A DNA stretch of 64,000 bases from an uncultured Bacilli bacterium (GCA_905235045.1 CAJOJO010000009.1:4241-68240); one strand, 5' to 3'. Positions 1-36,051 are shown, counted from the stretch's first letter. The notes: a model not told the origin generated them from the letters alone. Numbers and translations are program-made.

Positions 1-110
<110 letters not shown>

Positions 111-298
111 CTAACAAAAAAGGGAGTCAAAGATACTAGTCATAAACTACTACCCTTGACTCCTTAATAACTAAAATAATAAATTGTTTTTTGCTTCTGA
201 CCATAGATGTACCTCTCTTTCTAATAAAAGACGGATACTGCTTGTCATTTATTGGTTTAATATTCTAGCACTTTTAAATAATTTGTCAATATGTGTAG

Positions 299-586
299 TT
301 ATTTGATTGTTCTTAAGAAATTTTCCAAGTCTTTCAATTCAATTGGATTATTGAGATTAAAATGATAAACCTCTTTACCATAATTGAAGAATAGGAAGAC
401 ATGATTATTTACTATCATACGATGAGGTTCTACATAATTAAGATTAGTTCTTTGAATGTTTATTAAGTTTCCATGTATGTATTTAGGTTTAACATTTACA
501 TACTTACAAATAAAATCTAATCTATTTTTGATTCCTTCATCATAATCAAGCTTATGTTTTTTAATTTGTAACATATAAAAAATCAA
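299..586 (-). CDS. Hypothetical protein (95 aa)
   Basis: ORF with no recognisable motifs. Lies between the recombinase fragment and tRNA-Trp. Followed by a hairpin terminator (atcaactacctttctggcggttgat). Confidence 0.3.
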   Translation of the reverse strand: MIFYMLQIKKHKLDYDEGIKNRLDFICKYVNVKPKYIHGNLINIQRTNLNYVEPHRMIVNNHVFLFFNYGKEVYHFNLNNPIELKDLENFLRTIK

Positions 587-659
587 CTACCTTTCTGGCG
601 GTTGATTTTTCTATGTATTTAAAGCTCTAAACTCTAAAAGTTAGAGCATCAAGTACTAA

Positions 660-735
660 TGGCAGGGGTAGCAGGAGTTGAACCCACATCAGCGGTTTTG
701 GAGACCGTTATTCTACCATTGAACTATACCCCTGT
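660..735 (-). tRNA. trnW: tRNA-Trp (anticodon CCA)
   Basis: Reverse complement AGGGGTATAGTTCAATGGTAGAATAACGGTCTCCAAAACCGCTGATGTGGGTTCAACTCCTGCTACCCCTGCCA. Cloverleaf with 7-bp acceptor AGGGGTA/TACCCCT, anticodon loop CTCCAAA, T-loop GGTTCAACTCC, encoded CCA. Confidence 0.85.
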
Positions 736-3212: not shown

Positions 3213-3232
3213 GAGAACAAATTGTTCTCTTT

Positions 3233-16614: not shown

Positions 16615-17013
16615 CTATTTTTTCTTTAGAATATCTCTTATTTCTTCTAATAATAATGTTTCATCACTTTTAACTGGTTTACTTGGTTCTTCTTTACGTT
16701 TAAATTTTTGAAATAATTTAATCATCATAAAGATACAGAAAGCAATAATTAAGAAATCAACAACTGATTGAATAAAAGAACCATATGCGATAGTTGCATC
16801 ATTAATATTAATTGTTAAACTATTAAAGTTTAATCCACCAAGTAAAGTACCAATTAATGGCATTAAGATATCATTAACTAAACTTGTAACAATTTTTCCA
16901 AAAGCACCACCAATAATAACACCAACAGCCATATCAACAACATTACCGCGAGATATAAATTCTTTAAATTCGTTTACTCCTTTTGAAACATTATTTAATT
17001 TCTTTTTTGCCAT
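16615..17013 (-). CDS. mscL: Large-conductance mechanosensitive channel MscL
   Basis: [40 protein letters not shown] signature of MscL. 132 aa. Confidence 0.85.
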
Positions 17014-17108
17014 ATTATTCCTCCTAACAAAATTATATCATTATTTTAAAAGAATGCTATTAAAATTTATAAATTTATGATATAATAAGCTCTAATTGGA
17101 GGGATATT

Positions 17109-17753
17109 ATGTTAAATTTAGAAGAAAAGTATTATGATACAAGTGTATTAACAATTATTTTAGAAAGTGTTTTTGAAAAATCACCTGAACAAATAAGAAA
17201 AAGCATTGAAAATGAAAAAATTACTATTACCGATGATGAAATTAAAAAATTTTTAGATGATAATGTAAAATCTAATAAATATAATTATGAACCATATACA
17301 TTAAAATATTTCAAAACTTATACAGATATATTAAGAGAAAAAGTTAATTCATTATTATACATTATTGAAAATTTGGATAAAAAAGAAATTGACTTAATTA
17401 AAGAAACACTTATTGATTTAGATATTAATTTAGATGAAAATAATAATATTTTAAAAAGCGATATTATTCGTTTATTAAAACCAACTATCTTTAATATTAA
17501 TATTTTAAAAGGGAATGTTAGAAAAGCTAATAATGTTAAAACTTATTTAGATTTTAATATCTCATTAGATTCAATATATATGGATGGATTTACAGAAGAA
17601 GAAATTTATCCAAATAAATCACTACAAATTAAAAACTTATATTACAATCATACACCAGGTAATGTTGATTTATCAGAAAATCAAGTTGCTGAATTAACAG
17701 AAGAAGATAGAAAAAAAATGGTTTATTTCTTGGATATAATGAATAATAAATAA
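17109..17753 (+). CDS. Hypothetical protein (214 aa)
   Basis: GGAGGG RBS. No motif match. Ends at the hairpin that starts the 37-bp repeat. Confidence 0.4.
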   Translation: MLNLEEKYYDTSVLTIILESVFEKSPEQIRKSIENEKITITDDEIKKFLDDNVKSNKYNYEPYTLKYFKTYTDILREKVNSLLYIIENLDKKEIDLIKETLIDLDINLDENNNILKSDIIRLLKPTIFNINILKGNVRKANNVKTYLDFNISLDSIYMDGFTEEEIYPNKSLQIKNLYYNHTPGNVDLSENQVAELTEEDRKKMVYFLDIMNNK

Positions 17754-17756
17754 AAG

Positions 17757-17793
17757 AACTCACTATTAAGTGAGTTTATTTTTATATGGGGCG
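17757..17793. repeat. Left copy of 37-bp direct repeat: terminator hairpin + duplicated 3' tail of tRNA-His (att-like)
   Basis: aactcactattaagtgagtttatttttAtatggggcg matches 32164-32200 at 36/37. tggggcg is the reverse complement of the tRNA-His 3' terminus. Homology stops exactly there. Confidence 0.5.
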
Positions 17794-17917
17794 ATAACAA
17801 AGGTTATCTGAAACCCTAAAGTAAAAGTTGATAAACAACTAATTCCTATAAACATTATAGCAAAATGATACTTGATAGATTATCATATCATATTTTTATA
17901 TTTTTCTATCTATATAT

Positions 17918-18058
17918 TTATTTATTTTTAATTGGTAATGGTTTAATTAAACTACCAATTTGTATATTTTCGTTATCTATCATCTTATTTTGCATTTTAG
18001 TTTTACTTTCTAATTGTAATAACATTAATTTAAGTACTAATAACTGTTTTTTTGTCAT
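17918..18058 (-). CDS. Small ORF (46 aa) with strong SD, unknown function
   Basis: AAAGGGGGAGAG 6 nt upstream of ATG. MTKKQLLVLKLMLLQLESKTKMQNKMIDNENIQIGSLIKPLPIKNK. More credible than the overlapping plus-strand 104-aa low-complexity ORF. Confidence 0.3.
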   Translation of the reverse strand: MTKKQLLVLKLMLLQLESKTKMQNKMIDNENIQIGSLIKPLPIKNK

Positions 18059-18124
18059 ATACTCTCCCCCTTTATTTGATAGACCATACTATAACACTAT
18101 TTTCTTTATTTGTCAATATAAAAG

Positions 18125-18150
18125 CTCACTATTAAGTGAGTTTATTTTAT
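18125..18150. terminator. Third copy of the ctcactattaagtgag hairpin terminator (no tRNA tail)
   Basis: ctcactattaagtgagtttatttta is identical to the hairpin part of the 37-bp repeat, followed by a T-run. Intrinsic terminator structure (7-bp stem, 6-nt loop). Confidence 0.5.
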
Positions 18151-18283
18151 TCAACCATTATAACGTATCCATAATATAGAATAAATACTAGTAGTAATAT
18201 TAAACCTTCTTTTCTTGAAATTATTCTATCTGTAGATGAAAATATAAATAGCAAAAAGGCAGCTAAAATCGTAGTCTGCCTCC

Positions 18284-19249
18284 TTATTTTATATCTAAAT
18301 AACATTCTTTTTTTAGAAAATCAAATATTTTTTTATCATTATCTGTTTCATAGTAATCAATTAGTAATTTTTTGTATTTATTTACTTTTTCAGCAGGAAT
18401 TACAATCATCCCTTTACCTTTTGAAATTAAGTAATGATTAGCAAATATAACTGAAGTTCTTTTATTACCATCAATAAACATTTGTTTTTTTACAACATAT
18501 AATAATAATTCAATTGCTTTATCAACATCATTACTACTACTATTAACAATATTATTTATATCATCTTTAATATCAGATTCAATTGGTAAAGATGGTTTCC
18601 ATGTTGTCCCACCGATATCTACTGATACACTTCTTAACATACCAGCATTATAATAAAAGCCTTCTTCAACTAATTTGTTAATCATACATAATATTGAATA
18701 ATCTGTTTTTGATAAAATAACATTTTTATTTAAAACAAATTCCCAAGCATGTTTTAAATTTACAATCTTTAATATGTCATCTGATGACATATTATTTACC
18801 TTACCACCTTCAATAATATTTTCAGTATCAGATAAAGTTGTTGCCACACCTTCTAATATTGCTTGTTTATAAATAGTATTAGCTAAATTTTTTTTAGCAA
18901 AATCAATATTATTACTTACTTCATAAGTTAATTCTTGATCTATATAATTTAGTTCTTTTAGTTCCTTTTCTATTTTTTTAATTTCTTTTTTTAATTCTTT
19001 TGCTTTAACATTATTATTTAAAATTAAATTATATAATTCATCACTATATTCACCAATATATTTAGATTTTTTAATACCATTTATTCTTACGTGAGTATAA
19101 ATATATTTATTATTGTTTTTTTTTCTTATTTCGATTGAACCATATATTAGTTTTTCTAATTCTACTTGCTTATTTTGTTTTATATTTAGCAAACTTAATA
19201 TTTTAGCTTGAGTTTCCATAGTTATCACCTCAATATAATTATAACACAA
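18284..19249 (-). CDS. Fic/Doc (Fido)-like protein with degenerate active-site motif
   Basis: C-terminal QMFIDGNKRTSVIFANHYL resembles the Fic motif HxFx(D/E)GNGRxxR, but H is replaced by Q and G by K. N-terminal coiled coil. Confidence 0.4.
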   Translation of the reverse strand: MCYNYIEVITMETQAKILSLLNIKQNKQVELEKLIYGSIEIRKKNNNKYIYTHVRINGIKKSKYIGEYSDELYNLILNNNVKAKELKKEIKKIEKELKELNYIDQELTYEVSNNIDFAKKNLANTIYKQAILEGVATTLSDTENIIEGGKVNNMSSDDILKIVNLKHAWEFVLNKNVILSKTDYSILCMINKLVEEGFYYNAGMLRSVSVDIGGTTWKPSLPIESDIKDDINNIVNSSSNDVDKAIELLLYVVKKQMFIDGNKRTSVIFANHYLISKGKGMIVIPAEKVNKYKKLLIDYYETDNDKKIFDFLKKECYLDIK

Positions 19250-19314
19250 AAAATAAAAATGTGGAACTTTTTTTATATTTTTTTATAATTTTGTTCCACA
19301 TTTACTAAATACTA

Positions 19315-19659
19315 TTACATATTTTTTACACAATCCCAAATGGAATTCCATTTATCATCAATACGATTTTTTTCAAATACAATCTTTTTATCTTTTTTAT
19401 AAATATTATCTTCACTATCACAAAGCTCTGTTGATAAACAATAATTATATTGAATTTTTGCATTCACAGAAGAAATTATATAAAATGATATAGCTGCATC
19501 TAATTCATTGTTATTATCATCAAAATCTAATTCTATATTCTTTAATTCTTTATTATTTTCTAAAATATAATTACCAATTGCTTCACCAATATCTGGATTA
19601 TGAGCATAATCATTTTCCAAAAAATCTTTAATTTTTATTGTCTTCTTTTTATTAAACAT
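19315..19659 (-). CDS. Hypothetical protein (114 aa)
   Basis: ORF in the island cargo. No motifs. Confidence 0.3.
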   Translation of the reverse strand: MFNKKKTIKIKDFLENDYAHNPDIGEAIGNYILENNKELKNIELDFDDNNNELDAAISFYIISSVNAKIQYNYCLSTELCDSEDNIYKKDKKIVFEKNRIDDKWNSIWDCVKNM

Positions 19660-19678
19660 ATTTCCTCCTATTATTATA

Positions 19679-20566
19679 TTATAATTCTAGTGCTACTGCT
19701 TTAGAATTAGTTTTAAATTTATTTATTAATTGCAATAGTTCTGTATTATAACCTATATCAATAATAATCATTGTTCCAAATAAGGCACTTGGCATATTTC
19801 TTTTTCTTATTGTTCCCTTAATATTACGATAATATCCATTTCGAGAAATAATTGTTAGCGATCCTGAATAAGCTTTAATAAATTCTTCAATATCGTGCAA
19901 TCCTAATCCGCCAAAACTATTTGGTTTTGTCGAATTACCCATTTTAACAGCCCATGATATATATTCAGCATCATTATCGTGAAAACGATTATTTATGTAT
20001 GGTGCCACCACACATGGTATTGTAGCGCCACAATCAAATATAGAAAATCGCACATGTTGAATATTTGGATATTTTTGACCGCAACAACATATAAGATTAG
20101 TTTTTCCATGTGTTCTCGCATTTATAAATGCTTCACTTAAATATTTAATAATATAATCCGTTGCATCAATACCTAATGATAAATTCTTTAATAATTCGTC
20201 CTTTGCATATGTATCAAAACAATCCGTTTCATTGTTTAACAAATCATTCTCAAAATTTTTAAAATGAATAGCCGTATTTTTACTAAACATACTTGTATTA
20301 TTTCCAAAAATATCATGGGATAATAATATTTCTTTTATTTTATCGCTGATATTAATCATTGTGATAGTGTTGTCTGTAGTTCTTGCAATTTCATATAATA
20401 CTCCAATTATAACTATAATTTCCCCACACACAAATTTAGTTTTTTTAAAATCTAGTATTATATTATTCTTAGTCACACTTTTTATATGATTATATATTTG
20501 AATAAAACTTAAAAGTGTTTCCTCTTCATTATCAATATTTACAGGCATCTCAAACAAATATATCAC
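19679..20566 (-). CDS. GHKL/HATPase_c-type ATP-binding protein with N-terminal STAS-like region (no HisKA)
   Basis: N-box EAFINARTHG and G2-box GGLGLHDIEEFIKAYSGSLTIIS of Bergerat ATPases (SpoIIAB/RsbW-like). N-terminus has a STAS-like pattern (IILDFKKTKFVCGEIIVIIGVLYEI). Confidence 0.45.
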   Translation of the reverse strand: MIYLFEMPVNIDNEEETLLSFIQIYNHIKSVTKNNIILDFKKTKFVCGEIIVIIGVLYEIARTTDNTITMINISDKIKEILLSHDIFGNNTSMFSKNTAIHFKNFENDLLNNETDCFDTYAKDELLKNLSLGIDATDYIIKYLSEAFINARTHGKTNLICCCGQKYPNIQHVRFSIFDCGATIPCVVAPYINNRFHDNDAEYISWAVKMGNSTKPNSFGGLGLHDIEEFIKAYSGSLTIISRNGYYRNIKGTIRKRNMPSALFGTMIIIDIGYNTELLQLINKFKTNSKAVALEL

Positions 20567-20650
20567 CTACCACAAAATTGCATTACATAAGTATATTAAT
20601 TATATCATTTAGCACTATTTACATCAATATTTTTTGTATTTTTAAATAGT

Positions 20651-21262
20651 CTATTTTTCTTCATCATAAACTTCACTAATAACCCTATCTTTTAATGTAA
20701 CCTCTATTTTCGAAAGAATTGTTGCTGGATCTAAATCCTTATGATCATGGGATAATTGACATTTTTCCGGTTTAATAAAATATTGCACTTTTTCAGAACT
20801 ATCCTTCTTGCCAACATACAAAACAATTACTGTATTATTTTGTTTATCATGTTTAACATCAGTTTCTAACCAATAATTTGTATCAAGTTTAGTTTTTTTC
20901 TTTATTTCCGGAACATACCAATCATCAATTCGAATTAATTCAGCACTTTTAAGCATTGGTATGTTTAAAATTTTAAGACAATCTTTATATATCTCATCAA
21001 TATCATCAACATTAATTTCTTGATTACATATAGGGCAAAGTAAATAACCTCTAGGCCTATCATATTTTAATTCTTGTTCTTGATGTTTTATACAATGTAA
21101 ATGAATACCATTTTGACAACAATAATAATGTCGCTTCCAGTTTTCTTCTTTTTCATAAAAATTTGTACAATTACCATATGTTAAACTGTTTACAGTATTA
21201 GCCAAACTACATTGGCGAAAACAAATTTTATCATTATAACTAATTAAAACTTCACTTTTCAT
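20651..21262 (-). CDS. Cysteine-rich (zinc-ribbon-like) hypothetical protein
   Basis: Multiple Cys pairs (CFRQC, CC, CPICN) in a 203-aa protein. Confidence 0.35.
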   Translation of the reverse strand: MKSEVLISYNDKICFRQCSLANTVNSLTYGNCTNFYEKEENWKRHYYCCQNGIHLHCIKHQEQELKYDRPRGYLLCPICNQEINVDDIDEIYKDCLKILNIPMLKSAELIRIDDWYVPEIKKKTKLDTNYWLETDVKHDKQNNTVIVLYVGKKDSSEKVQYFIKPEKCQLSHDHKDLDPATILSKIEVTLKDRVISEVYDEEK

Positions 21263-21520
21263 AATTTAATCTTCCTTTATATAACTTTTTACTAATTAAA
21301 TTATATAATAAAAGTTGATTATTATCAATAAACTATCTATAGTTTTAGAGATCTATCTAAATAATTGGAATCTTGTAATAATTCAATACTACTATTGTTA
21401 AAAATTTTATACGCCTCTACTTTTGCCTTAATAATATTTTCATCAGTATTACAAAAGTTTTTAAGTCGGGATTTTGACTTAATTTAACTCATTTTTGTTT
21501 ATTTTTGTATTTTTTTGTAT

Positions 21521-22345
21521 TTAATTTACTAATTGATATATAGCTGTATCAGTAATCGTAAACATATCTAAAACATCATTTCCTATATATATTTGAACTT
21601 TTCCAAAGTCTTTTGTTTTTATAATTGCAATATTTGGTCGTGCATAATCTAAAATAGTATATGATAATCCATCAAATTGTGATGGAGCTAAAACACCACA
21701 TTCATTTCCAACAACTGGGGCTTTATCAAGAGGATATACTCGCCATGAGTCAGCTTCAGGACTCAAGTTTAATACTTTCTGATTTTTAACTTTTACATCT
21801 TTTAAATATTTCCACTCAGCTACACCTCTTATTATATTTGTATTATCCATAAAAAAAGCATCTTCTAGTTTCATTTGATTTGGTATACAATAAACACCGT
21901 CTTCATTTGGGAACCAGTCATCCTGTTTTCCTCTTCCAACTTCAATGTGACAATGAACACCTGTAGCTTTTCCTGCATTACCCATATTACCAATTTTTAC
22001 TCCTTGCTTTATAGATTGACCTACATAACAATTAATAACATTATCATGACCACATAAAAATGTAACATAATCAATGCTTCCATCAGCGAGTCTAACTTTT
22101 TCTATTGATTGCCACCAAACAAAGGCATAAGTTCTATTTATATTTACACATCTAACATCTACTGGAGCATAATATGGATATCTTATACCAGATCGTTCTC
22201 CTATAATGTCATTAGCTTCACTTCCCATATGTGATGGTGTATCGTCAGCACCCTGTGTGCAATACCAATCAGTAAAAGGACACAATACATCTTGTATTCC
22301 TCCTCTTATACTTTGCTGTCCTTTTTCCATACTATTCACCACCAC
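21521..22345 (-). CDS. M23 family metallopeptidase, endolysin-like (paired with holin)
   Basis: GQSIKQGVKIGNMGNAGKATGVHCHIEV matches the LytM/M23 C-terminal block (GxTGxxTGPHLHFE). Overlaps the holin gene stop by 14 nt (lysis-cassette arrangement). Confidence 0.6.
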   Translation of the reverse strand: MVVNSMEKGQQSIRGGIQDVLCPFTDWYCTQGADDTPSHMGSEANDIIGERSGIRYPYYAPVDVRCVNINRTYAFVWWQSIEKVRLADGSIDYVTFLCGHDNVINCYVGQSIKQGVKIGNMGNAGKATGVHCHIEVGRGKQDDWFPNEDGVYCIPNQMKLEDAFFMDNTNIIRGVAEWKYLKDVKVKNQKVLNLSPEADSWRVYPLDKAPVVGNECGVLAPSQFDGLSYTILDYARPNIAIIKTKDFGKVQIYIGNDVLDMFTITDTAIYQLVN

Positions 22346-22682
22346 TCATCTTTTCAAAATACTTTTTGAATGGTAGCTTAATTCCTAACTCACCAAGATT
22401 TTCATACACTGAAACTCCTTCAGTAGCTATGCACACAATCGCACTACCAATTAAAAACAAATTTACCTTAACAAAATAATCGATAGCAAATCCCAAGATT
22501 AATGCCACTACCCATGAAATTTTTTTTATAAATCCATCCCTAGAAATAGATGAATTTACTTTCTTATTTTTAATTGCTTTTAAATAGCCAGTTAGAATAT
22601 CTGAAAATACAAATATACCACATAATAGAAATAAAGTTTTAGGATTATTTACTTCCAATATTTTTTGAACAAATTCCTCCAT
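22332..22682 (-). CDS. Holin, TcdE/phage_holin_4_1 family
   Basis: 116 aa with 3 TM helices and a charged C-terminus. LFLLCGIFVFSDILTGYLKAIKNKK resembles the TcdE-type holin N-terminus. Directly upstream of the M23 peptidase. Confidence 0.55.
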   Translation of the reverse strand: MEEFVQKILEVNNPKTLFLLCGIFVFSDILTGYLKAIKNKKVNSSISRDGFIKKISWVVALILGFAIDYFVKVNLFLIGSAIVCIATEGVSVYENLGELGIKLPFKKYFEKMSGGE

Positions 22683-22772
22683 ATCATTTCCTCCTTTTAC
22701 AAGTTAATGATATATCAGTATCTACTAGATATTCACTAGACAAAAAAAGAATTTAGATATTTCTAAATTCTT

Positions 22773-23423
22773 TCAATTAAACTTCACAATATACCAATGT
22801 TCCTTCATTTTTTTAATTGAATTAACTCCATCAACAAGATTATTAATCTTTTTCTTATCAACTGATGAATAGATTATACTTGTTCCTTCATCCGGAAATG
22901 ATCCTATGATTTTAAACTCAATAAGTATATCTTTTTTATTAAACAAATGTATATATACTTCATCATTTATTGATAAATTTTTATATTGAGTAGGCAATTT
23001 TAAATAATTGTTTTCTTCTACCAAATCGAGTTGTTTAATATAATTTATAGCATTTACCCTGTCATCATATTTATTTTTAAATTCAATATTTAATTTAATA
23101 GTGGCAGGATTAAAAACAACAAATAAAAAAGTAAAAGTTGCTAAAAAAATTATTGGATAAACATCGCTTATAGTTTTAACTTCAATAAGTTTTTTGAATG
23201 ACAAAAATAATAATAGTATATATCCAAAAAAAATTATAAAAATTGGTGTTCCAACTAATAGCAAAACAATAATAAACAATTCATCGAAAAACCAAAACAA
23301 TACAAAAGAATAAACGAATAGTAAAAATTCAAAACATATCAATTTCATATTTGTTATATTTTTTAACATAATATCACTAACCTTTATTATATTAATAATA
23401 GCATGATTACCTAATTTTTTCAA
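22773..23423 (-). CDS. Polytopic membrane protein, candidate immunity protein for the RHS C-terminal toxin
   Basis: Four TM helices plus a C-terminal soluble domain. Sits immediately 3' of the RHS toxin C-terminus, the canonical immunity position. Confidence 0.4.
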   Translation of the reverse strand: MKKLGNHAIINIIKVSDIMLKNITNMKLICFEFLLFVYSFVLFWFFDELFIIVLLLVGTPIFIIFFGYILLLFLSFKKLIEVKTISDVYPIIFLATFTFLFVVFNPATIKLNIEFKNKYDDRVNAINYIKQLDLVEENNYLKLPTQYKNLSINDEVYIHLFNKKDILIEFKIIGSFPDEGTSIIYSSVDKKKINNLVDGVNSIKKMKEHWYIVKFN

Positions 23424-23568
23424 GTGAAATCTTTCTATTAAATTTTTAATATTTGCTAACTTTTTGATTATATTAGTATATTATCAAAAGTTTAATTTGT
23501 AATAATTAACAATAAAAATCTACGTGAAATAAATACGTAGATTTTTTAAATTAATACTGGACAATCTC

Positions 23569-25020
23569 TTATTTCATATTGTCATATAAATGATATCCTA
23601 AAGTAATATAATATGTATCTCTTGGATCATCACAAACTGAAGCGGTAAAACAATTTACATAAGTTTCAAGATTATTCCAGTGCTCTTTTAATTGATATAA
23701 CCCAGCTCCTGTCGTTAAGAAATCTAGATCATAACCTATTGCATTTCCTATATATCCAAAATTGATATTTCCTGCATCTTCGGGATCTAAAACTATACCA
23801 TTATACGAAAATGATTTGTTCCACTCAGGAGTTCGCTTTAAGTCAAATTTTCCTCCTGATCCAACATCTTCAACAAAATTAATTAAATTAACTACAGCAG
23901 GTTTATATTTTGTTTCAGCAATTACATCAGCTGCATTTTTTTTCAAAGTATCATTAAATTTTTTAGTTTTATCTGGAACTTTTTTCTTTTGTGTCTTTGC
24001 AATCGCTTTTTTAGCTTTTGAATTTTGACAATCAGTATTTACAAGGGAAATTGCTCCTACAATTACAACAGCTGCAACTATAAGTGTAAATAATCCATGT
24101 CCATCAGGATCAGTATAATTTATAGGGTTATTATTACAATATAAGTACATATTATATCCTAAAACCCCTGTATCAGTTGATAAATAATTATCAGCATTAA
24201 TAAATCTACCCCATAATGGATTATAATATCTACTATTTAAATAATATAGTTTAGTTTCTTTATCATAATAAAAACTTCTGTATCTATATGGATTAATATT
24301 TGCTATATGATTACTATTATTAGAAACATCTAAACCTGTACCATCCGTAATAGAAATTATAGTACCCCATGAATCATATTCATAATTTGCAACAATGTTA
24401 TTATTACTATCAATTATTTGTATAATATCATTTTGTGCATTTTTTACGTAATAATATGTATCATTATTATATTGTAATCCAATCAATCCATTTGCACTAT
24501 TTCGTAGATAATAAATAATGTCATTATTTCTTGTTTCAAAAACAACATCGTTATTCTCAATATAATAGCTAGTATCAACATTATTTATTGTCTTCTTAAT
24601 TCTTATGCCATCTTTGTCATATTTATAGTTGATTGATAAATTTAAATTACTATCAATATAACTTTCAAGCTGTCTACCATTTATCCATGTAAGTGATATA
24701 TTATTACTTATTGATGTTGGATTACCAATATTATCATATACTATAGAATTACCATTAAAAGTTGTTAATTGATCTGTCCAATCATGATTATTATATTCAA
24801 ATTTATAATTTTCTAATTGATTATATGTATCTAGTTCATATACTGTTTTTTTTGTCATATTACCATATTTATTATACTTATATCTTATTGTGATACCCAA
24901 ACTATAATCATCTTCTCTAATTAATTCATTATACTTATCGTAATAATATTTTTTTTCTAAAGTGTTATCATTATATATACAACTAATGTTACCTAATTTA
25001 TTATATTTATACTTTATCAA
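23569..25020 (-). CDS. RHS-repeat protein, C-terminal part: YD repeats, RHS core end, TM helix and ~150-aa C-terminal toxin domain (3' portion of a frameshifted gene)
   Basis: YD-repeat units. Core-domain terminus YYNPLWGRFINADNYL...NPINYTDPDGH (the DPxGL boundary), followed by LFTLIVAAVVIVGAISLV and a unique domain. Confidence 0.6.
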   Translation of the reverse strand: MIKYKYNKLGNISCIYNDNTLEKKYYYDKYNELIREDDYSLGITIRYKYNKYGNMTKKTVYELDTYNQLENYKFEYNNHDWTDQLTTFNGNSIVYDNIGNPTSISNNISLTWINGRQLESYIDSNLNLSINYKYDKDGIRIKKTINNVDTSYYIENNDVVFETRNNDIIYYLRNSANGLIGLQYNNDTYYYVKNAQNDIIQIIDSNNNIVANYEYDSWGTIISITDGTGLDVSNNSNHIANINPYRYRSFYYDKETKLYYLNSRYYNPLWGRFINADNYLSTDTGVLGYNMYLYCNNNPINYTDPDGHGLFTLIVAAVVIVGAISLVNTDCQNSKAKKAIAKTQKKKVPDKTKKFNDTLKKNAADVIAETKYKPAVVNLINFVEDVGSGGKFDLKRTPEWNKSFSYNGIVLDPEDAGNINFGYIGNAIGYDLDFLTTGAGLYQLKEHWNNLETYVNCFTASVCDDPRDTYYITLGYHLYDNMK

Positions 25021-28000
25021 ATTATTATTATTAGTATAGAAGTTCGCTTACCATTTGATACATAATCATATTTGGTTTCATAGTAATTATTTATTTTACT
25101 TTTAGTAATTCTTCCTAATTCGTCATATGTATTATCTAAACTAGAATTATCTAACAAGCAATTACTTATTCCATCGCCATCATTTAATGTATTATCTATT
25201 GTATGTGATGCATTATTTAATAAATATGTTTTTGAAACAATATTGTTATTTGCATCATAACTATATTTAATTGTAAAATTTCCATTTTTTAACATTGAAA
25301 GTCTCTTTGCCAAATCATACACATACTTAATTGAATTTTCGTTAGTTACTATTTTAAGTAAATCACCATTGCTACCATATTTATAATTATAAATATTATC
25401 CATAGTAGTTAATTTAATAATTCTACCAAATTCATCGTAATCAAATCGTATTTCTTGATTATTGCCATATTTAGAAGTAATTAAATTACCATTATTTGAT
25501 TCATATGTATTGGTCATCATTGTAATATTATTACCAATTTTAACTTTAGAAACATTTAAAAATTCATCATATTCATATTTGTAAATTCTATCATCTTGAG
25601 ATATTTGTGATATATGATTATTATTATTATAAATATAATTTATAACTTTATCACCTGAAGAAATTGATGATATTTGATTTTTATTATTATATTCATAATT
25701 AGTTATTATAATATCATTGTTATTAATTGATTTTATTAACCCTGACACTTGATCATATTCATATTTAGTAGTTTTAAAATTTGAATCAATAGTTTTTGAT
25801 ATAAATCTTCCATCAGTTGTATACTCAGCACTTTTTTCAATAAATTTGCTATTAGTTATACTTTCAAAATAAAATTCATATGCAGGATCACTATTAACTA
25901 AATCATCAATTATTAAATTATTATTTGATACTTTTAAAAACTTTTGTGTTTGCTTGTTTTTTATCACAAAACTACCATTATCATGTCTATCAAATTCGAA
26001 AAGTGAATTATCATTTTGATAGTTTGACATAATAATTGAACTATTACTTATTGTAATATATTTTTCAATAATTGAATGTTTTATTTTAAAATAATCAATA
26101 TTATTTATAGTTACTTTTTCAATTATCCACTTACAATGTGCATGTAAATCTTCCTGTATATTAACTAGATTATTAATACAATTAATATTATTATATGTAC
26201 CACTTTGTCTTATAATATATACTCCATCAACTATTTCTTTACATTGTCCTCTATTAATCATTTTTGTTGATACAATATTACCAAACTCATCATAATCATA
26301 CTCAGTAGAAATTCCTATTTCTGATACACCTTTTAAAAGTTTATTATCACTATCATATTCATATGTAAATTTTTGGCCTTTTGGATTTTTTGAACTAATT
26401 AATTGATTTTGAACATTATATTTATATTCAGTCGTATTATTATCCAAGTGTTTGGTTTTAATTATATTACCTTCATCATCATAATCATATGTGCTATTTC
26501 TAATATCTTTAAACATATTTATATTTGTTATATAAAACTCATTACCATTTAATTCTTGGTTAAAAATAATATTTACTGCATTAAAATCCCATGGAGCTAT
26601 CATTTGCGAAGAATAGAATTGCCATTCGTTTTCATTTGGATTAAGTGCTACTTCAAAAAATCCACCATCTGTTTGTTGTTGTTGAACCGGAATAAAACTA
26701 ACGAACACATTGCATCTTGTTCCACTTCCTAAACCTGTACCGCCTAATAGTCCTGTATGCTTATACCAAAATGATATATTAAATAAATCTCCTTCTCTAC
26801 CACATATATTTAGTCGTTGACTAATACTTGATGTATTTGAAGTATTCATATTAATTTTTAAGCAATTTACATTATCGACAGTAGTTGCTTCAAAAACAGA
26901 ACTAACCGGGAAATTTTGACCTGAATATTGTGTCCATTGACTTAATCCATTAGAAAAATCGGAATTTTCAATCATGTTATAATTATTTGCTACTTCACCA
27001 ATTTCTAATTGAAAATCGTCACAATAGTAATAACCAATTTCTTCCATTATAAGAATAATTTTCAGATTACTATTTGCATTTGATGGATAAAAAATTGTAA
27101 CATCATTTCTTTCAAATTCACTTTCTGTTGAAATAGTACTAGACGAAGATACTTCTTGATTATTTTCATCAATATAAGATAATCTAATTGTTAAATGTTT
27201 GTTGTCTGTTTTAAAATAACCACTAAAAGTATAGAATTTTCCTTTTTCTACAGAAACATCTTGATATGTCGATTGTACTGGATTTGCGCAAGTAATTCTT
27301 AAACTTTGGAAACCTGTATTAGCATAATTAGTAGTTGTTGTTAATGAAACATTATTATTTGGAACAAACAAAATATCATTTAAATCTGTACTTTCAAAGC
27401 TTGAATTTGTTAAAAAATTTTTAACATATCTTATAGGCATATTATTTTTTAAAAGTTTGTTTTTATAAGTGTTTTCACCAAAATATGATACACCATAATC
27501 AATATTTAAGCCATAACCATCATTAATATTGTTATATTCCTTTAATGTAGAAGTAGAAACAGGATTACCATAATCATTAAATGTTATTGTATTAGATCTT
27601 CCATACGAATCTAAAATTGTCGTTGCATTAAATCCATATGTTACTTCGTAATATTTTCCAAGTGTTTGATTACTACCATATTCACTTATTTTTTTTATTT
27701 TATATGGTAAATTACCATAATATTGATATTCTAATTTTTTTCCAGTAACATCTTCAATATCAGTAATTAAACTATTGTTATTATTTGATATACTTACAAC
27801 ACCAAGTGATGATTGAACGCTTATTAAATTATTACTATTATTATATGTTAAATAGAAAGTATCATCACTACTAATAATTGTTATTTGATTTGCGCTATAT
27901 TGAATGTTAATTTCATTTTCATTAACATCAGTAACTTTATTTATACGATTATTTGTATCATAGCTTATTGTTATTATATTATTGTTAATATCCTTAATTT

Positions 28001-29774
28001 CTGTCAAATATCCAATACCGTTTATTTTAAGAAATTTTTTTTCAGTTTTATTTTTATCTCTTAATATATAATAATTATCATTATTTTCTATTACTAAATT
28101 CAATCCATCCTCATCAAAAAATGTATTTTCATAAGTAGTAGTATTGTAGTTATTTGTATTATTATCATACATAACTCTTTGATTTAAAAAATAATGTATT
28201 GTCCCATCTTCGTCAATATATTCCAAATAATTAGTATTTTCAATTAATCGTGATTGTATTGTTTGATGATAATTTAATCTATATCCTATACCATAACCAA
28301 TATCATTCCCTAATACAACATCATTAGTATTATATACCAATTTTAAATTTGCCGGTAAATTACCTCCAATTGTTTGACCTATATTCATTATAGTTGTTAA
28401 ATTACCATTATAAAGATTGTGGCATATTTCACCTAAACTCATTTCTTGTCTTTGGTAACTCATATACTGTTCTAATCCATTTTGATTCCTATATGTTATT
28501 ATCAAATATGGTTTTGGGTTAGTACCTGTAACTGAATTGTTTTTTGAAAAAAACATAGGAATAATATCTGTTTTGTATACTTCATTACTTAATTTTAACA
28601 TCATACCATAGTTTGGAGTTTCTGTATACCATTTTTGAACTAAAGGAGTTATATCAGCACCTGATAAACTTAATATTATGTTACCATTACCATCTTCATA
28701 ATGAATTCTGCGACATATAAATGTTCCTTCTACTCTTGAATCAAATTTATCATTCATTGAATTCCATGTTGCTGTTGTTTCATCCCACGATGTTGTAATT
28801 CTATATATATTGACAATATCAGATGAATATGAAAATGTATAATCTGGATAATTTCGTAAATTTAATTTTGCTGAAATAACTTGACTTCCTGTTCCTAATG
28901 TGGGTAAATCAAATTTTAATAATGATCTATTTATTCTATCACTACCACTTATTCTTTCTACACCAACTTTTAAGAAATCTCTGCTATTTCTGTCATCATT
29001 TGTATCACCAGGATATATGTATGTGTCATACACATTACCATTTTGAGCATTATTCGTAATTGTTGGATCAATAATAACAGGATATTTAATACCTGAGTTT
29101 AACCACTCTTTATCAAGAATTGTTTTTAACTCATAACTATTATCTATTTTATTTAATTCATATTCTACATTGATATTAAGTTCACCACTTGAATCCATCA
29201 TAAATGGCACTTCAAACTTAAATACACATTCATCATTATTCATAGCGATTATACTATCATTTTCTAATTTTAAATCTAAATCAGTGTCAATCTTAAACAC
29301 TAATTTATCAATATCAGAATCTCTATCTTTTATATAAATGCTTTCTTTTACTCTAGATGAAACTAGATCATAACATATATCAACATTTTTTAAAACATTA
29401 ATATATTTTATTTTACCAATAAGTTTTGACATAGACTCTTCTTGTACTATATCAAATTGATTATAGTCTTTTAAAGAGAATGATATAAAATGATTATCTT
29501 TTTCTATTCTCATTAACTCAGGTTTAGGAACTGCAGTGAATAACACTTTATTTTCATTAGCTTTATTTACATAATGATCATCTTCTAAAATCAATGTGTT
29601 ATCAATTTCTTCAAACTTGCCATTATTAAAATAATGAATATTTTCATCATACATTTCTGCTCTGAATTCACCATTTTCTTGGAGAAAATGTTTTTCTTTA
29701 GGTCCTCTTTTATCGACTATTTCTATTTCTTTCATATTTACCTCCTTAATTTTTATATTTAGATAACTTTTCAA
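25017..29774 (-). CDS. RHS/YD-repeat protein, N-terminal 1585 aa (5' portion of a frameshifted gene), with beta-trefoil/lectin-like insert
   Basis: Dozens of YD repeats (YEYDSDNKLL, YDYDEFGNIV, YSYDANNNIVSKTY). Overlaps the next ORF by 4 nt in another frame inside an att-att-att run, and the YD repeats continue across the junction. Confidence 0.6.
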   Translation of the reverse strand: MKSYLNIKIKEVNMKEIEIVDKRGPKEKHFLQENGEFRAEMYDENIHYFNNGKFEEIDNTLILEDDHYVNKANENKVLFTAVPKPELMRIEKDNHFISFSLKDYNQFDIVQEESMSKLIGKIKYINVLKNVDICYDLVSSRVKESIYIKDRDSDIDKLVFKIDTDLDLKLENDSIIAMNNDECVFKFEVPFMMDSSGELNINVEYELNKIDNSYELKTILDKEWLNSGIKYPVIIDPTITNNAQNGNVYDTYIYPGDTNDDRNSRDFLKVGVERISGSDRINRSLLKFDLPTLGTGSQVISAKLNLRNYPDYTFSYSSDIVNIYRITTSWDETTATWNSMNDKFDSRVEGTFICRRIHYEDGNGNIILSLSGADITPLVQKWYTETPNYGMMLKLSNEVYKTDIIPMFFSKNNSVTGTNPKPYLIITYRNQNGLEQYMSYQRQEMSLGEICHNLYNGNLTTIMNIGQTIGGNLPANLKLVYNTNDVVLGNDIGYGIGYRLNYHQTIQSRLIENTNYLEYIDEDGTIHYFLNQRVMYDNNTNNYNTTTYENTFFDEDGLNLVIENNDNYYILRDKNKTEKKFLKINGIGYLTEIKDINNNIITISYDTNNRINKVTDVNENEINIQYSANQITIISSDDTFYLTYNNSNNLISVQSSLGVVSISNNNNSLITDIEDVTGKKLEYQYYGNLPYKIKKISEYGSNQTLGKYYEVTYGFNATTILDSYGRSNTITFNDYGNPVSTSTLKEYNNINDGYGLNIDYGVSYFGENTYKNKLLKNNMPIRYVKNFLTNSSFESTDLNDILFVPNNNVSLTTTTNYANTGFQSLRITCANPVQSTYQDVSVEKGKFYTFSGYFKTDNKHLTIRLSYIDENNQEVSSSSTISTESEFERNDVTIFYPSNANSNLKIILIMEEIGYYYCDDFQLEIGEVANNYNMIENSDFSNGLSQWTQYSGQNFPVSSVFEATTVDNVNCLKINMNTSNTSSISQRLNICGREGDLFNISFWYKHTGLLGGTGLGSGTRCNVFVSFIPVQQQQTDGGFFEVALNPNENEWQFYSSQMIAPWDFNAVNIIFNQELNGNEFYITNINMFKDIRNSTYDYDDEGNIIKTKHLDNNTTEYKYNVQNQLISSKNPKGQKFTYEYDSDNKLLKGVSEIGISTEYDYDEFGNIVSTKMINRGQCKEIVDGVYIIRQSGTYNNINCINNLVNIQEDLHAHCKWIIEKVTINNIDYFKIKHSIIEKYITISNSSIIMSNYQNDNSLFEFDRHDNGSFVIKNKQTQKFLKVSNNNLIIDDLVNSDPAYEFYFESITNSKFIEKSAEYTTDGRFISKTIDSNFKTTKYEYDQVSGLIKSINNNDIIITNYEYNNKNQISSISSGDKVINYIYNNNNHISQISQDDRIYKYEYDEFLNVSKVKIGNNITMMTNTYESNNGNLITSKYGNNQEIRFDYDEFGRIIKLTTMDNIYNYKYGSNGDLLKIVTNENSIKYVYDLAKRLSMLKNGNFTIKYSYDANNNIVSKTYLLNNASHTIDNTLNDGDGISNCLLDNSSLDNTYDELGRITKSKINNYYETKYDYVSNGKRTSILIIII

Positions 29775-30135
29775 TTTCTTTTTTTACATTTGGATAGTAA
29801 TTCTTCCATAATGTAGATACATCTTTATTTTCTTCTTCAGAAACTTTTTCAATTGCTTTAGAAACACTTGTCCCATTAATAACAATTTCTTTATATAATT
29901 TGTTTTCAATACCACTTAAATTACATATATCTTCTTCTATTTTTTTAATGACTTTGTTGTATTGGCTTATAGTTTTTTTAATCAGTTCTATTTCAGCTAA
30001 GATGCCTCTTTCATATTGAGTTAATAGTTTTAATCTTTCTTGCAAACTGTCTAACTCAACTTTTGTGTTAATATAGTTATCTATACATTTCATATAATAT
30101 TTCGCGAAAAAGAACATTACGCAGTTCTTTTCCAA
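29746..30135 (-). CDS. Hypothetical coiled-coil protein (129 aa)
   Basis: ORF between the tail-collar gene and the RHS gene. Overlaps both ends. Confidence 0.35.
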   Translation of the reverse strand: MEKNCVMFFFAKYYMKCIDNYINTKVELDSLQERLKLLTQYERGILAEIELIKKTISQYNKVIKKIEEDICNLSGIENKLYKEIVINGTSVSKAIEKVSEEENKDVSTLWKNYYPNVKKEIEKLSKYKN

Positions 30136-31289
30136 GTATATACTTCATATCTAAGTGGAGTTACACTGTGTGTATGTGAGTTTAAAGTATGTGTATGACC
30201 TTGTCCACCACCAGTGTTATTATTAGTAGCTGTCGCATTTTGTGTATAATAAGTTACTAAAGCTGCACCTGCATAGAATCCTGAACTACCAGCTGGTCTA
30301 GTGTCATAATGAGCTGGGTCATTCATCCAAGTATTGTTATTTTGTGCATGACTATGTGGGTTTTGAGTATGTGTATGGCTTGGCATTTGTGCTACGGTTA
30401 ATGCTGTGCTACCAGTTGTATTTGTACTTGGTCCACCTGATGTATTACTTCCTGCTGTGTTACCACCATCACCAGCATATAAATAATATCCATTAATTCT
30501 ATCCCATGTTCCACCAAATAATGTTGCTGGGCTTGTACTACTTACTGAAAGATAAATACTACCAACAGGATATATTAAATCAACAACTTCAGAACTAGTT
30601 AATCCACCACCAATTGGTGTACCATTAATTGTAAGTGAATTAGCAACTATGTTTCCAGCGTTGTCAATGCTAAATGTATTATTTTTAGACGTAATACATT
30701 TTGCAGTTAAATTATCTACTTCAATATTTAATTCATCTCCGATTTTTGTGAATGCGTCTTTGAAGTAAATGTCGTCTAGTGAGAAATCATCACACGCTTC
30801 AGTGTGTCTAGCATAAATTACACTATTAACGAATAGTCTGTTTAAATCATCATCTTTTGGATATACGATTATAATATCAGCATCTGTATAATTAGTATAA
30901 ATGTAATTAGTTCCTTCAAATAAAGTTATGTCTATAGTATCTAATTCTTCGACTACAGGTTCAGATAAAACTGAATTATCGCTTCCAATTAGTCTATTAA
31001 CATATGCCTCTAGAACTATCTTGTTATTCTTTAATGCTACTTTTTGAACTACTTCATCACCCTCCCCACTAGCATATCTTAAAATATCAGTAAGATTGAA
31101 AACATATTGTTTTCTATCATTACTAGGATTTGAAGATGATTGTTTATCAACATAGATAACCAAATCATTTTCATTTGGTGCTACTGATGTCGCACCCATC
31201 TTAATTTTTATCCCTAATGCTGCCGCATTTAGAGAGTCTTGTAAGCTGATTTCATTTGTACCGCTTACGCTTTGATTCGTTAAATTCAT
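30117..31289 (-). CDS. Phage tail fibre protein with C-terminal tail-collar (MdpB-like) domain
   Basis: IYPVGSIYLSVSSTSPATLFGGTW ... LTVAQMPSHTHT ... HSH ... GHTHTLNSHTH matches the phage tail collar domain signature (xPVGSIxxS ... FGGTW ... LTxxQMPxHxH). Confidence 0.6.
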   Translation of the reverse strand: MNLTNQSVSGTNEISLQDSLNAAALGIKIKMGATSVAPNENDLVIYVDKQSSSNPSNDRKQYVFNLTDILRYASGEGDEVVQKVALKNNKIVLEAYVNRLIGSDNSVLSEPVVEELDTIDITLFEGTNYIYTNYTDADIIIVYPKDDDLNRLFVNSVIYARHTEACDDFSLDDIYFKDAFTKIGDELNIEVDNLTAKCITSKNNTFSIDNAGNIVANSLTINGTPIGGGLTSSEVVDLIYPVGSIYLSVSSTSPATLFGGTWDRINGYYLYAGDGGNTAGSNTSGGPSTNTTGSTALTVAQMPSHTHTQNPHSHAQNNNTWMNDPAHYDTRPAGSSGFYAGAALVTYYTQNATATNNNTGGGQGHTHTLNSHTHSVTPLRYEVYTWKRTA

Positions 31290-31426
31290 ATTCTTATCAC
31301 CCTTTCTTGATTTAACACCTACATAGTAATTTAAACTTTACTGGATATTCACTAGACTTTTTTTCTTTTTTCAAAAAAAAGAAACAAATAGTTATCTCAT
31401 TTGTTTCCCCATTTAAATTTAATTTT

Positions 31427-31921
31427 TTATATAGTTTTCACATCTTCTTTAAAATTAAGTGTCAACTTTTGTCTAGCGCTAATTATAGATGCATAGACCG
31501 AGTGAACTGAACATCGTTCTATTTCAGCGATTTCTCGCAATGACATTTCATAAAAATAATACATTATTAATCTTTTCTTTTGAGTAACCGACAAACACTC
31601 AATAAATTTATATAATTGCTCACACATTATTTTATTAAAAACTATTTCTTCAACTGATCTAGGTTTATATCGTAAACGACGATATAATGTTTCCTCGATC
31701 ATTTCAGATTGTTCTATATGTCTTTCATATTTATGTCTTTGTGAAATTTCTTCTAATTTAAAATTATTAAACTCATTATAAATTACTTTATCAACTTTAA
31801 CGTAATTTTCTACATTTTTTGAATCCTTAAATATAACGTAATAATCCCCATTAATTATTATTAATTTATATGGATTATTAAATAACCTATGTATCACATC
31901 CAACCTCCAATCATTATACAA
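31427..31921 (-). CDS. ArpU-family / sigma-70 region-4-like transcriptional regulator (phage late-gene activator type)
   Basis: C-terminal LSVTQKKRLIMYYFYEMSLREIAEIERCSVHSVYASIISARQKL is a sigma-70 region-4 HTH. There is no region 2, so it is not a full sigma factor. First gene inside the island next to tRNA-His. Confidence 0.5.
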   Translation of the reverse strand: MYNDWRLDVIHRLFNNPYKLIIINGDYYVIFKDSKNVENYVKVDKVIYNEFNNFKLEEISQRHKYERHIEQSEMIEETLYRRLRYKPRSVEEIVFNKIMCEQLYKFIECLSVTQKKRLIMYYFYEMSLREIAEIERCSVHSVYASIISARQKLTLNFKEDVKTI

Positions 31922-32163
31922 AAAATGAATAATGGAGGTGATCTATTTTTAATAAAAAAAGTAGTTATTTTTAAATAACTACTTACTACTATATAATTTT
32001 TAAATTTAAATATTTGTACAACCTGTAAAATCATAAGCATGCCACCAAACTCTATGTGTTAAGATGGTACTGCTTAATATCTTAACTAAAAACTATAATA
32101 ATTATATAATAATTTTTATTAAAATTAAATATTTATTTGCAATAAATTAATTTTAATAAAAAA

Positions 32164-32200
32164 AACTCACTATTAAGTGAGTTTATTTTTAAATGGGGCG
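32164..32200. repeat. Right copy of 37-bp direct repeat (terminator hairpin + 3' end of intact tRNA-His)
   Basis: aactcactattaagtgagtttatttttAaatggggcg. Overlaps the tRNA-His 3' terminus at 32194-32200. Confidence 0.5.
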
Positions 32201-32270
32201 CGGTAAGGGATTCGAACCCTTGCATAATGGAACCACAATCCACCGTGTTAACCCCTTCACCAACCACGCC
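32194..32270 (-). tRNA. trnH: tRNA-His (anticodon GTG, with G-1)
   Basis: Reverse complement G-GCGTGGTTGGTGAAGGGGTTAACACGGTGGATTGTGGTTCCATTATGCAAGGGTTCGAATCCCTTACCGCGCCCCA. Anticodon loop TTGTGGT. Extra 5' G pairing with the discriminator C is characteristic of tRNA-His. Confidence 0.85.
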
Positions 32271-32375
32271 ATGTGATACAATACATATTTTATCAATAAT
32301 TATTAAAATAATCAAGTCTTTTTAAAAAATTATTATAACTGCCTACACTTATATATAACATACCCATAGAATATT

Positions 32376-32819
32376 TTGGGAGGAATAATTATGTATAATA
32401 ACCTAGATTATTATAATTATATGAACAATAATTATAATCAACCATTATATACGGAAAATAATAATCCTAAAGAATTATATGATCCACTAGAAGGATTTAT
32501 AAGAGGTAACTTATTTCCAGAATTATATAATGGTTATAAAGTTAAACCAATTAGCTTAAAACCAGTAAATGAACAAGCTAAAATGTTAACTACTTTAGAT
32601 GCTTTGTGTTTTGCCTTAACTGATCTTAATTTATATCTTGATATTTATCCAGATGACAGAGATATGTTAGAACTATTTAATCAATATAGAATTCAAATAA
32701 ATAATATTAAAACTATCTATGAAGATAAATTTGGACCATTAACAATTAATAGTGATGCGAATGATACATATCCATTTATTTGGATAAATAATCCTTGGCC
32801 ATGGATGGGAGGTAATTAA
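32376..32819 (+). CDS. cotJB: Spore coat protein CotJB family (possibly with CotJA-like N-terminal extension)
   Basis: ALCFALTDLNLYLDIYPDDRDMLELFNQYRIQINNIKTIYEDKFGPLT matches the CotJB core. N-terminal GNLFPELY resembles the CotJA motif. Overlaps the cotJC start by 1 nt. Confidence 0.65.
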   Translation: MGGIIMYNNLDYYNYMNNNYNQPLYTENNNPKELYDPLEGFIRGNLFPELYNGYKVKPISLKPVNEQAKMLTTLDALCFALTDLNLYLDIYPDDRDMLELFNQYRIQINNIKTIYEDKFGPLTINSDANDTYPFIWINNPWPWMGGN

Positions 32820-35947: not shown

Positions 35948-36051
35948 ACAAGCACCTCCTATAATATGTTACAATATCAAATGTCAAATTCCATGCTTTT
36001 TTATAAAATTTTATATAAAAAATTAAGTCTTTTATTTCTAATTCATCATAT

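Follow-up and report, generated by a model that had tools for sequence, protein, structure and literature searches.

A tRNA-His island carrying an Rhs toxin cassette in an uncultured gut Bacilli bacterium, probably derived from a mobilizable family with a large serine recombinase

A tyrosine integrase acting in a tRNA or tmRNA gene is what defines the islands of the Islander type (PMC4383910), and the mobilizable elements of Firmicutes that use a serine recombinase insert within genes, where they have very short repeats (PMC5704250). The ssrA islands of Dehalococcoides, which lie at the tmRNA 3' end, are elements of the serine-recombinase type; their repeat is 20 bp long and some of them consist of cargo only (PMC3146451). 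Decayed derivatives of integrative and conjugative or integrative and mobilizable elements are known as cis-mobilizable elements (CIMEs; PMC5704250). Here we describe a 14.4-kb stretch beside a tRNA-His gene of an uncultured Bacilli bacterium, which lies between two copies of a 37-bp direct repeat within 64,000 nucleotides of DNA (CAJOJO010000009.1:4241-68240; the whole of this DNA is called the window). We consider the stretch to be an island that was formed when site-specific recombination took place at the final 7-8 nt (ATGGGGCG) of tRNA-His, through a family of mobilizable elements with a serine recombinase and with an Rhs toxin cassette as cargo, and put the probability of this at roughly 0.72. 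The result is an ordinary-looking tRNA island of which the family, the type of recombinase and the layout with a regenerated attB are unusual.

The host is an uncultured, spore-forming gut bacterium of ~26% GC with relatives in GTDB that are labelled 'uncultured Bacilli' or Candidatus Pelethosoma and come from the gut of rabbit, deer, chicken and human. Its species is absent among the GTDB representatives, where the best relative of ORF214, the left neighbour of the island, is ~56% identical. The two repeat copies (Table 1; other loci and contigs are given as L numbers) were found where the preliminary description of this DNA had placed them and are 36/37 identical, sharing aactcactattaagtgagtttattttt-a[t/a]atggggcg (the left copy reads aactcactattaagtgagtttatttttatatggggcg), with a sole mismatch at offset 29 that is t at 17785 and a at 32192. 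The heptamer TGGGGCG (32194-32200) is the complement of the last 7 nt of tRNA-His, ...CGCCCCA-3', and includes the His-specific C73 and the encoded CCA, so that the tRNA calls of ARAGORN and Rfam agree with the earlier claim that the repeat runs into the tRNA 3' end. It is these 7 nt, positions 70-76 of the tRNA, that are duplicated at 17787-17793, and as had also been described the similarity at the left copy stops sharply after gcg (ATAACAAAGG vs CGGTAAGGG). One bound of the island is thus the intact tRNA gene and the other a displaced 3' piece of it in the same orientation, which is the Islander signature. The 27-mer hairpin part of the repeat has three copies in the window (17757, 18123 with 2 mismatches, and 32164), where 100 shuffles lead one to expect 0, each of the hairpins has a terminator-like score on either strand, and the repeat pair is real and not due to chance.

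If the stretch were an insertion then tRNA-His should elsewhere lie next to the left neighbourhood with a single hairpin. Such an empty site had been predicted and is present in contig L014 from a sister species, where the stop of ORF214 is followed by one hairpin and by tatatggggcg, which leads straight into tRNA-His and then cotJB. ORF214 of L014 is 91% identical in amino acids to that of the window and the flanks are 86-92% identical in nucleotides, with the alignment jumping from 17793 to 32159 and the overlap being the repeat itself. The empty site bears the same host arm and core as the left repeat, and because the 30-nt hairpin part is present there it is the host's own attB arm. The earlier view of all 37 bp as the attachment site therefore stands for the last 7-8 nt, ATGGGGCG, which would be the recombination core, and does not stand for the hairpin part.

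Further evidence for an insertion comes from the DNA just inside the left repeat. When the 329 nt that follow it were compared by blastn with the loci that had been fetched, the first ~70-108 nt (ataacaaaggttatctgaaaccctaaagtaaaagttgataaacaactaat...) were found to be 85-95% identical in species that reach only ~40% identity in their ORF214 homologs. A pattern search for this terminus gave 5 GTDB loci and 13 metagenome contigs, i.e. 18 loci of other hosts at 85-100% identity, or 19 with the window, which has one copy. The terminus stands directly after [a/c]TGGGGCG in the 19 loci, once in the form TGAGGCG, and to the left of the core each locus has a terminator hairpin that is specific to its host, with 16 distinct arms of which 15 are unrelated to that of the window. 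Past ~70 nt this agreement ends, and at least six groups of cargo can be told apart. The terminus folds better than its shuffles (z = -3.2), has no significant family in Rfam (the best is Srn266, E 0.45) and has no match in IMG/VR, where the attL junction was not found either. It marks a family of mobile elements with insertion at the tRNA-His 3' end, which is widespread in uncultured low-GC gut Bacilli and apparently undescribed. The earlier claim of an insertion that is site-specific and lies at the very end of tRNA-His, on its 3' side, is thus borne out by the empty site of L014 together with the conserved terminus in 19 loci. The left end of the island was also considered as a decayed 3' half of tRNA-His resembling the insert of L015, a candidate that was rejected as the local alignments were no better than those of shuffles.

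Intact members of the family occur in L031, L035 and L094 and partial members in L030, L037, L089, L090 and L096. The intact elements are ~8.7 kb long and 90-100% identical in amino acids although their host species differ, and all have the order terminus, 558-aa protein, Cap4-type nuclease, ORF265, PemK-like protein, Mob_Pre relaxase, 619-aa large serine recombinase, 90-aa protein (p90), two hairpins, ...gatttcacaATGGGGCG and tRNA-His. Pfam finds Resolvase, Recombinase and Zn_ribbon_recom in the recombinase and Mob_Pre in the relaxase. The large serine recombinase is the sole recombinase of these elements, and their junctions share the 7-8 bp core only, with a P arm of ...gatttcaca (family form ...gatttc[a/c]ca...; ...gagcagatttcaca). 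The module of recombinase and p90 also abuts the 3' ends of tRNA-Thr (L041, L057), of tRNA-Leu (L042) and, in the window itself, of tRNA-Trp, where a sibling element runs off the left edge in a layout that matches the recombinase-p90-tRNA-His order of the intact elements in other species. L031 has a further large serine recombinase (44% identical) at 2642-4728, which comes with a p90-like gene away from any tRNA and is presumably a family member with a different target. From these arrangements the recombinase of the family is most likely the large serine recombinase, and not a tyrosine integrase as is usual at tRNA sites.

The ssrA islands of Dehalococcoides are the nearest mechanistic precedent. 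There too a serine integrase module is found at the 3' end of a tDNA with a short repeat of the tDNA end and variable cargo, and islands without the module are still flanked by the repeat. However, they have a CcrB-like DsiB with a small DsiA, the longer repeat of 20 bp and a crossover in the T-loop of the tmRNA, whereas the family here, whose hosts are of another phylum, combines a single ~620-aa recombinase with the 90-aa protein and a Mob_Pre relaxase, and its core of 7-8 bp lies at the end of tRNA-His.

The absence of any tyrosine recombinase from the intact elements that share the terminus, and of more than 7-8 bp common to both of their junctions, makes it unlikely that the island is a classical one, in which an element with a tyrosine integrase would have brought a 37-bp attP copy of the tRNA end and terminator and the integrase would later have been deleted. 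The topology is that expected of a classical island, with a preserved, intact tRNA and a displaced direct 3' copy as its bounds and an empty site in a relative, and integration at tRNA genes is usually the work of tyrosine integrases (PMC4383910, PMC5704250), but the 30-nt hairpin part that such an attP would have to supply is host sequence, found at the empty site and different in every other host. The island differs from those of the Islander type in having no integrase, in having intact relatives with a large serine recombinase, and in that only 7 nt of the tRNA (70-76, including the CCA) are duplicated, the remaining repeat being the downstream terminator.

The machinery of the intact elements is missing from the island of the window. 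No integrase domain was found in any island ORF with Pfam, NCBIfam or PHROGs, in agreement with the preliminary description, nor in the other ORFs of the window that were tested, and the non-coding gaps of the island are too short for a hidden integrase gene. Searches by tblastn with the large serine recombinase and p90 gave no match in the island, the only matches in the window being at 6-574 beside tRNA-Trp, and the Mob_Pre relaxase has no match in the window. The left junction is a true attL in its layout, with host arm H1, core and family terminus. On the tRNA side the host hairpin H2 stands in place of the family P arm, as in the attB of L014, and this junction looks like a regenerated attB rather than the attR of the family. 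Of the attL/attR pair that had been proposed the left half is therefore kept and the right half is not, and the island is probably locked in place.

In this respect the island resembles a CIME, as it is without genes for integration and transfer, but a CIME retains attL as well as attR, and a neighbour's integrase can excise it in cis, whereas the tRNA-side site of the island is attB-like and without a P arm. L028, which keeps the family P arm and a remnant of p90, would be a true CIME-like relic. A closer parallel is L097, a 3-kb member with a reverse transcriptase and without the recombinase, in which a ~52-nt repeat is made up of the terminator of its own host and the core, and in which an A-rich microhomology of 10 nt, between the right end of the element and the host arm, is found at the join. 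Derivatives that have lost the recombinase and duplicated the host arm thus arise repeatedly, as in the island of the window and L097.

The probable course of events begins with an element of the ~8.7-kb integrative mobilizable family that would have recombined into the last 7-8 nt of tRNA-His, with the serine recombinase exchanging strands at a central dinucleotide within the core, probably the terminal CG. The copy in the window would then have lost the recombinase, p90, the relaxase and the family P arm. Either the recombinase end may have been replaced by recombination with an empty allele at an A-run microhomology, or an aberrantly excised circle with a captured host arm may have re-entered by RecA-type Campbell recombination. 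The repeat would be 37 bp rather than 7-8 bp long because the host arm was duplicated. Such an island could no longer be moved by the serine recombinase, although its precise loss would still be possible via the 37-bp repeats, and the tRNA-His site would stay free for another element. The crossover is probably at the tRNA-internal end of the core, in the terminal CG. There are three hints of this, none of them strong taken singly: the mismatch in the left copy is t as in L014 and in the right copy a, the core of L037 has the variant tgAggcg, and in a reconstructed attP the terminal CG is the midpoint of a CAGAT/ATCTG dyad.

The island is present in every contig of the same species (>99.3% identical). 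Across the region 17000-32400 these contigs (L001-L011) have 0-2 SNPs in stretches of the island against differences of ~0.1-0.3% in the flanks, in what is a small sample, and an island that is nearly free of SNPs is compatible with a recent acquisition or sweep. It is this difference, along with the terminus of a mobile family that adjoins the left core and is seen beside 16 unrelated host arms, that makes it doubtful that there was no insertion in this lineage at all, i.e. that the arrangement is old, the sister species deleted the DNA between duplicated terminators, and the repeat is an ancient local duplication of tRNA-His and its terminator. A precise deletion would be possible through 37-bp direct repeats. 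The island also holds the relic of a gene that is a chromosomal neighbour in L021, and therefore L014 is not simply the ancestral state. The base composition does not flag the island as foreign either: the contrast in GC or codon usage that the preliminary description had looked to was not seen, with 24.9% GC in the island vs 25.8% and 28.0% in the flanks, a GC3 difference of p = 0.054 and nothing in GC or codon-position composition that sets the island apart. But the stretch beside the left core has no significant similarity to the body of the tRNA, so that there is no decayed tRNA copy as a local duplication would have left, and the Rhs cassette is found at unrelated loci in other species.

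The assemblies themselves contain signs of variation at the site. The contig that leaves tRNA-His rightwards starts exactly at 32193 in three assemblies, and in two of the three its overlap with the contig on the island side equals the k of the assembler (141 nt, L006/L080; 55 nt, L005/L081), and the end of L079 (k = 87) is at 32279, i.e. 32193 + 86. On the left flank two contigs stop at 17782. The break points, between 17782 and 17783 and between 32192 and 32193, recur across independent metagenome assemblies and indirectly imply a second allele that shares the flanks and diverges within the repeat. An empty site with a run of four Ts (...gagtttatttt(t)atatggggcgcggtaaggg) would fit both break points, as would a new element in the regenerated attB; no empty allele was recovered within the species of the window, the signs of it being those of the assembly graph alone.

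That the hairpin is a generic terminator or REP-like sequence found after genes and tRNAs, with a match to the tRNA end by chance, is effectively refuted, for whilst it is a good bidirectional terminator with three copies within 15 kb, it is found nowhere else in the 64 kb (neither the 16-nt hairpin core nor the 27-nt part even allowing 3 mismatches), TGGGGCG is rare (3 copies in 64 kb vs 0.44 expected in this 26% GC DNA, two of the three at the island ends), the 37-mer pattern has no match in the rest of the window, in IMG/VR or in JGI metagenome contigs, and an empty site exists.

A number of points weigh against an island brought in by the serine-recombinase family. The third hairpin and the gene relic inside the left end (18123-18305) are not accounted for by a single clean integration, and the island may once have been present in L014 and since been lost. 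According to the authors of Islander, tRNA genes are not known as targets of serine-family integrases (PMC4383910), and the link between the serine recombinase and the att site is one of co-occurrence and position. The search for a recombinase covered the island and the window, and a tRNA-His-specific recombinase elsewhere in the host genome, or a tyrosine integrase in trans, may be what acts at the site. The dyad at the crossover is just 5 nt and was noticed post hoc, and both routes by which the host arm would have been duplicated are ones that we infer.

The cargo of the island falls into two parts. The left ~3-kb Fic module is not conserved alongside the rest in other species, its proteins have no significant match to a defence system in PADLOC, and a comparison of the Fic-like protein with the PDB gave a borderline match to FICD alone (E ~1e-3). 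The right 10.4 kb (21521-31897) is a cassette with the order sigma factor, 390-aa protein, 123-aa protein, Rhs toxin, presumed immunity ORF, holin and M23 hydrolase. It is also found at unrelated chromosomal positions in other species, in L083, where the 390-aa protein is 74% identical, in L084-L086 (60%) and in L100-L103 (44%). In these other copies the shell is conserved whilst the toxin tip and immunity gene are swapped, and the place of the holin is taken by a holin or by small membrane proteins. The holin and M23 pair is 66-76% identical to that of the copies in L083-L086. The Rhs protein itself has a DPDGHG-type core followed by a divergent tip, the N-terminal ~1900 aa being 51-53% conserved and the tip not. 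In the window the Rhs gene has a 16-bp deletion near 25035 that splits it into ORFs of 1585 and 483 aa, whereas four other contigs from this species have an unbroken gene (2060 aa), and the deletion is either a recent inactivation or an assembly error.

The function of the cassette can be proposed from its genes. The ORF at 22773-23423 would be the cognate immunity gene of the toxin, and the small sigma-70 region-4 protein is presumed to be the activator of the cassette. The 390-aa protein belongs to a family with more than 3500 homologs and by its domains is similar to a baseplate or receptor-binding protein of phages, although its AF2 model (pLDDT 69.5) has only weak fold matches to phage baseplate proteins. 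In IMG/VR no close relative of the 390-aa or the 295-aa protein was found, and a sequence search of the PDB gave no match for the sigma factor, the 390-aa protein or the 295-aa protein. No N-terminal signal peptide is evident in the Rhs toxin, as judged by eye, and the linkage of holin and M23 hydrolase to a large toxin without a signal is kept in four other genomic contexts. The cassette is not phage debris and by its conservation appears to be a functional unit. The preliminary description had seen everything between the repeats as accessory, phage-derived or toxin cargo of a decayed element; this holds for an insertion that is without its recombinase, but not for the stretch 18123-18270, which is the relic of a chromosomal gene, nor for the toxin and 'phage' genes, which are a conserved cassette.

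The closest loci with a comparable mode of release are the PaLoc of C. difficile, with the sigma factor TcdR, the holin TcdE and TcdL, and the type 10 secretion of the Tc toxins of Yersinia entomophaga (PMC12485765, PMC12150058, PMC10847048). These loci also encode a large signal-less toxin next to a peptidoglycan hydrolase, a holin of the phage type and a small regulator of the sigma type, also include an integrase-less island that is absent from relatives, and the Tc toxins also use an Rhs-type shell. By this analogy we infer that expression of the Rhs toxin may be controlled by the sigma factor and that its release may depend on holin and hydrolase. Unlike these loci, the toxin of the window is an Rhs polymorphic toxin (Ntox44) with an adjacent presumed immunity gene, the M23 peptidase is intact, there is an extra phage receptor-binding-like protein, and release is here a prediction. 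The adjacent presumed immunity gene suggests a role in interbacterial competition. No description of such a cassette in Gram-positive bacteria was found in the literature searched.

The left end of the island is less simple. The third hairpin had been noted before and was found again without the tRNA core; behind it lies the relic of a Na+/Ca2+-exchanger family gene, which matches L021 in blastn at 77% over 159 nt (E 6e-27) and in tblastn at 77% in amino acids (E 2e-14). In L021 an intact Na/Ca-exchanger gene (Pfam Na_Ca_ex) directly follows the homolog of ORF214, with a hairpin and 3' end that are homologous to 18123-18270 of the window. No single history was found that fits the segment of the 46-aa ORF, the third hairpin and the exchanger relic together. 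L021 (4790-5068) and L022 (4730-4920), which are of the same species, have an identical 245-aa homolog of ORF214 and diverge ~40 nt past its terminator hairpin, where L022 keeps the last ~8 codons of the Na/Ca-exchanger gene before unrelated DNA and the gene of L021 is intact. This divergence is another recombination hot spot at the equivalent position. ORF214 may itself be the remnant of an older element left of the island, and homologs of its family adjoin the 3' ends of tRNA-Thr and tRNA-Arg in other species (L027, L032; the family is also in L031).

Table 1. Features of the island, its bounds and neighbours, with positions counted from the first nucleotide of the window
Feature	Position	Strand	Remarks and basis
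Sibling element at tRNA-Trp, off left window edge	6..733	minus	Serine-recombinase N-terminus, 30 aa (95->6); p90 homolog (574->305); two hairpins; tRNA-Trp (660-733)
ORF214, left neighbour of island	17109..17753	plus	40% homolog of ORF265, backbone gene of intact elements
Left repeat	17757..17793	plus	Host attB arm (bidirectional terminator hairpin H1 of ORF214 and T-run) and displaced core ATGGGGCG; would form attL with terminus
Displaced tRNA-His 3' core ATGGGGCG	17786-17793		
Conserved element terminus (P' arm)	17794..17862	plus	First ~50 nt near-invariant, next ~20 nt semi-conserved; three small palindromes; blastn and pattern matches
46-aa ORF	17918..18058	minus	Strong ribosome-binding site, TTGACA-17-TATAGT promoter; called as gene in L001
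Third hairpin copy	18123..18149	plus	25/27 identical, without tRNA core; homologous to hairpin after ORF214 homolog in L021
Relic of Na+/Ca2+-exchanger family gene	18150..18305	minus	C-terminal ~40-50 aa; blastn/tblastn to L021
Variable left cargo module	18284..21262	minus	Fic/Doc-like protein (18284-19249), 114-aa protein, 295-aa protein (phrog_3364), 203-aa protein
M23 peptidoglycan hydrolase/endolysin-like protein	21521-22345	minus	Pfam/PHROG
Holin, Phage_holin_4_1	22332-22682	minus	Pfam/PHROG
Probable immunity protein, 198-216 aa	22773..23423	minus	Directly after toxin gene; no homology to L083-L086 counterparts
Rhs/YD-repeat polymorphic toxin, C-terminal Ntox44	23569..29735	minus	Pfam RHS_repeat and Ntox44
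123-aa partner protein	29746-30117	minus	
390-aa protein	30117-31289	minus	Beta-sandwich N-terminal and T4 gp10 C-terminal-like domain; Pfam Gp10_C, PHROG tail protein
Small sigma-70 region-4 protein, 156 aa	31427..31897	minus	45-51% identical to gene at same position in L083-L086
Right repeat	32164..32200	plus	Hairpin H2 and core, runs into tRNA-His; attB-like layout (host arm, core, tRNA)
Intact tRNA-His(gtg), anticodon GUG	32194-32269	minus	ARAGORN and Rfam

Two further features of the window lie outside the island. A second small variable region, between bipA and cell-wall genes, has Bro-N-like and YhcG/DUF1016 nuclease genes (35285-37107, 41559-42299); the Bro-N gene encodes 220 aa in L003 and is split into 169 and 49 aa in the window and L004, and in L014 the Bro-N/YhcG block is replaced by a different gene of 368 aa. 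At 48125-48155 there is an L31-Firmicutes ribosomal-protein leader of Rfam, above the gathering score.

It is apparent that a call of attL and attR made from a single sequence can be right, the proof in this case being the empty site and a conserved terminus beside many host arms. The island points to serine recombinases that target the 3' end of a tRNA, a niche that is regarded as that of tyrosine integrases. The 7-nt target (C70-A76 of tRNA-His, with the CCA and with C73, which is specific to His) is shared by all the host arms seen, and therefore the enzyme could have a broad host range and be of use as an integration tool. Derivatives without a recombinase and with a regenerated attB, such as the island and L097, suggest how fixed cargo islands and arrays form beside tRNA genes, and if true, the regeneration of attB while cargo islands are shed would be a simple way to build an array of islands at one tRNA. 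The cassette of Rhs toxin, holin and M23 hydrolase offers a testable answer to how Rhs toxins without a signal leave Gram-positive cells. It is possible, in what is a tentative and wider view, that the island is the footprint of an undescribed superfamily of mobilizable elements with large serine recombinases which would target the invariant 3'-terminal heptamer of a tRNA without damage to it (tRNA-His, with siblings at Trp, Thr and Leu) and shed cargo islands while regenerating attB, and that the cargo, with its own sigma factor, a phage receptor-binding-like partner and a dedicated holin/M23 hydrolase pair, would give a type-10-like delivery of an interbacterial Rhs toxin.

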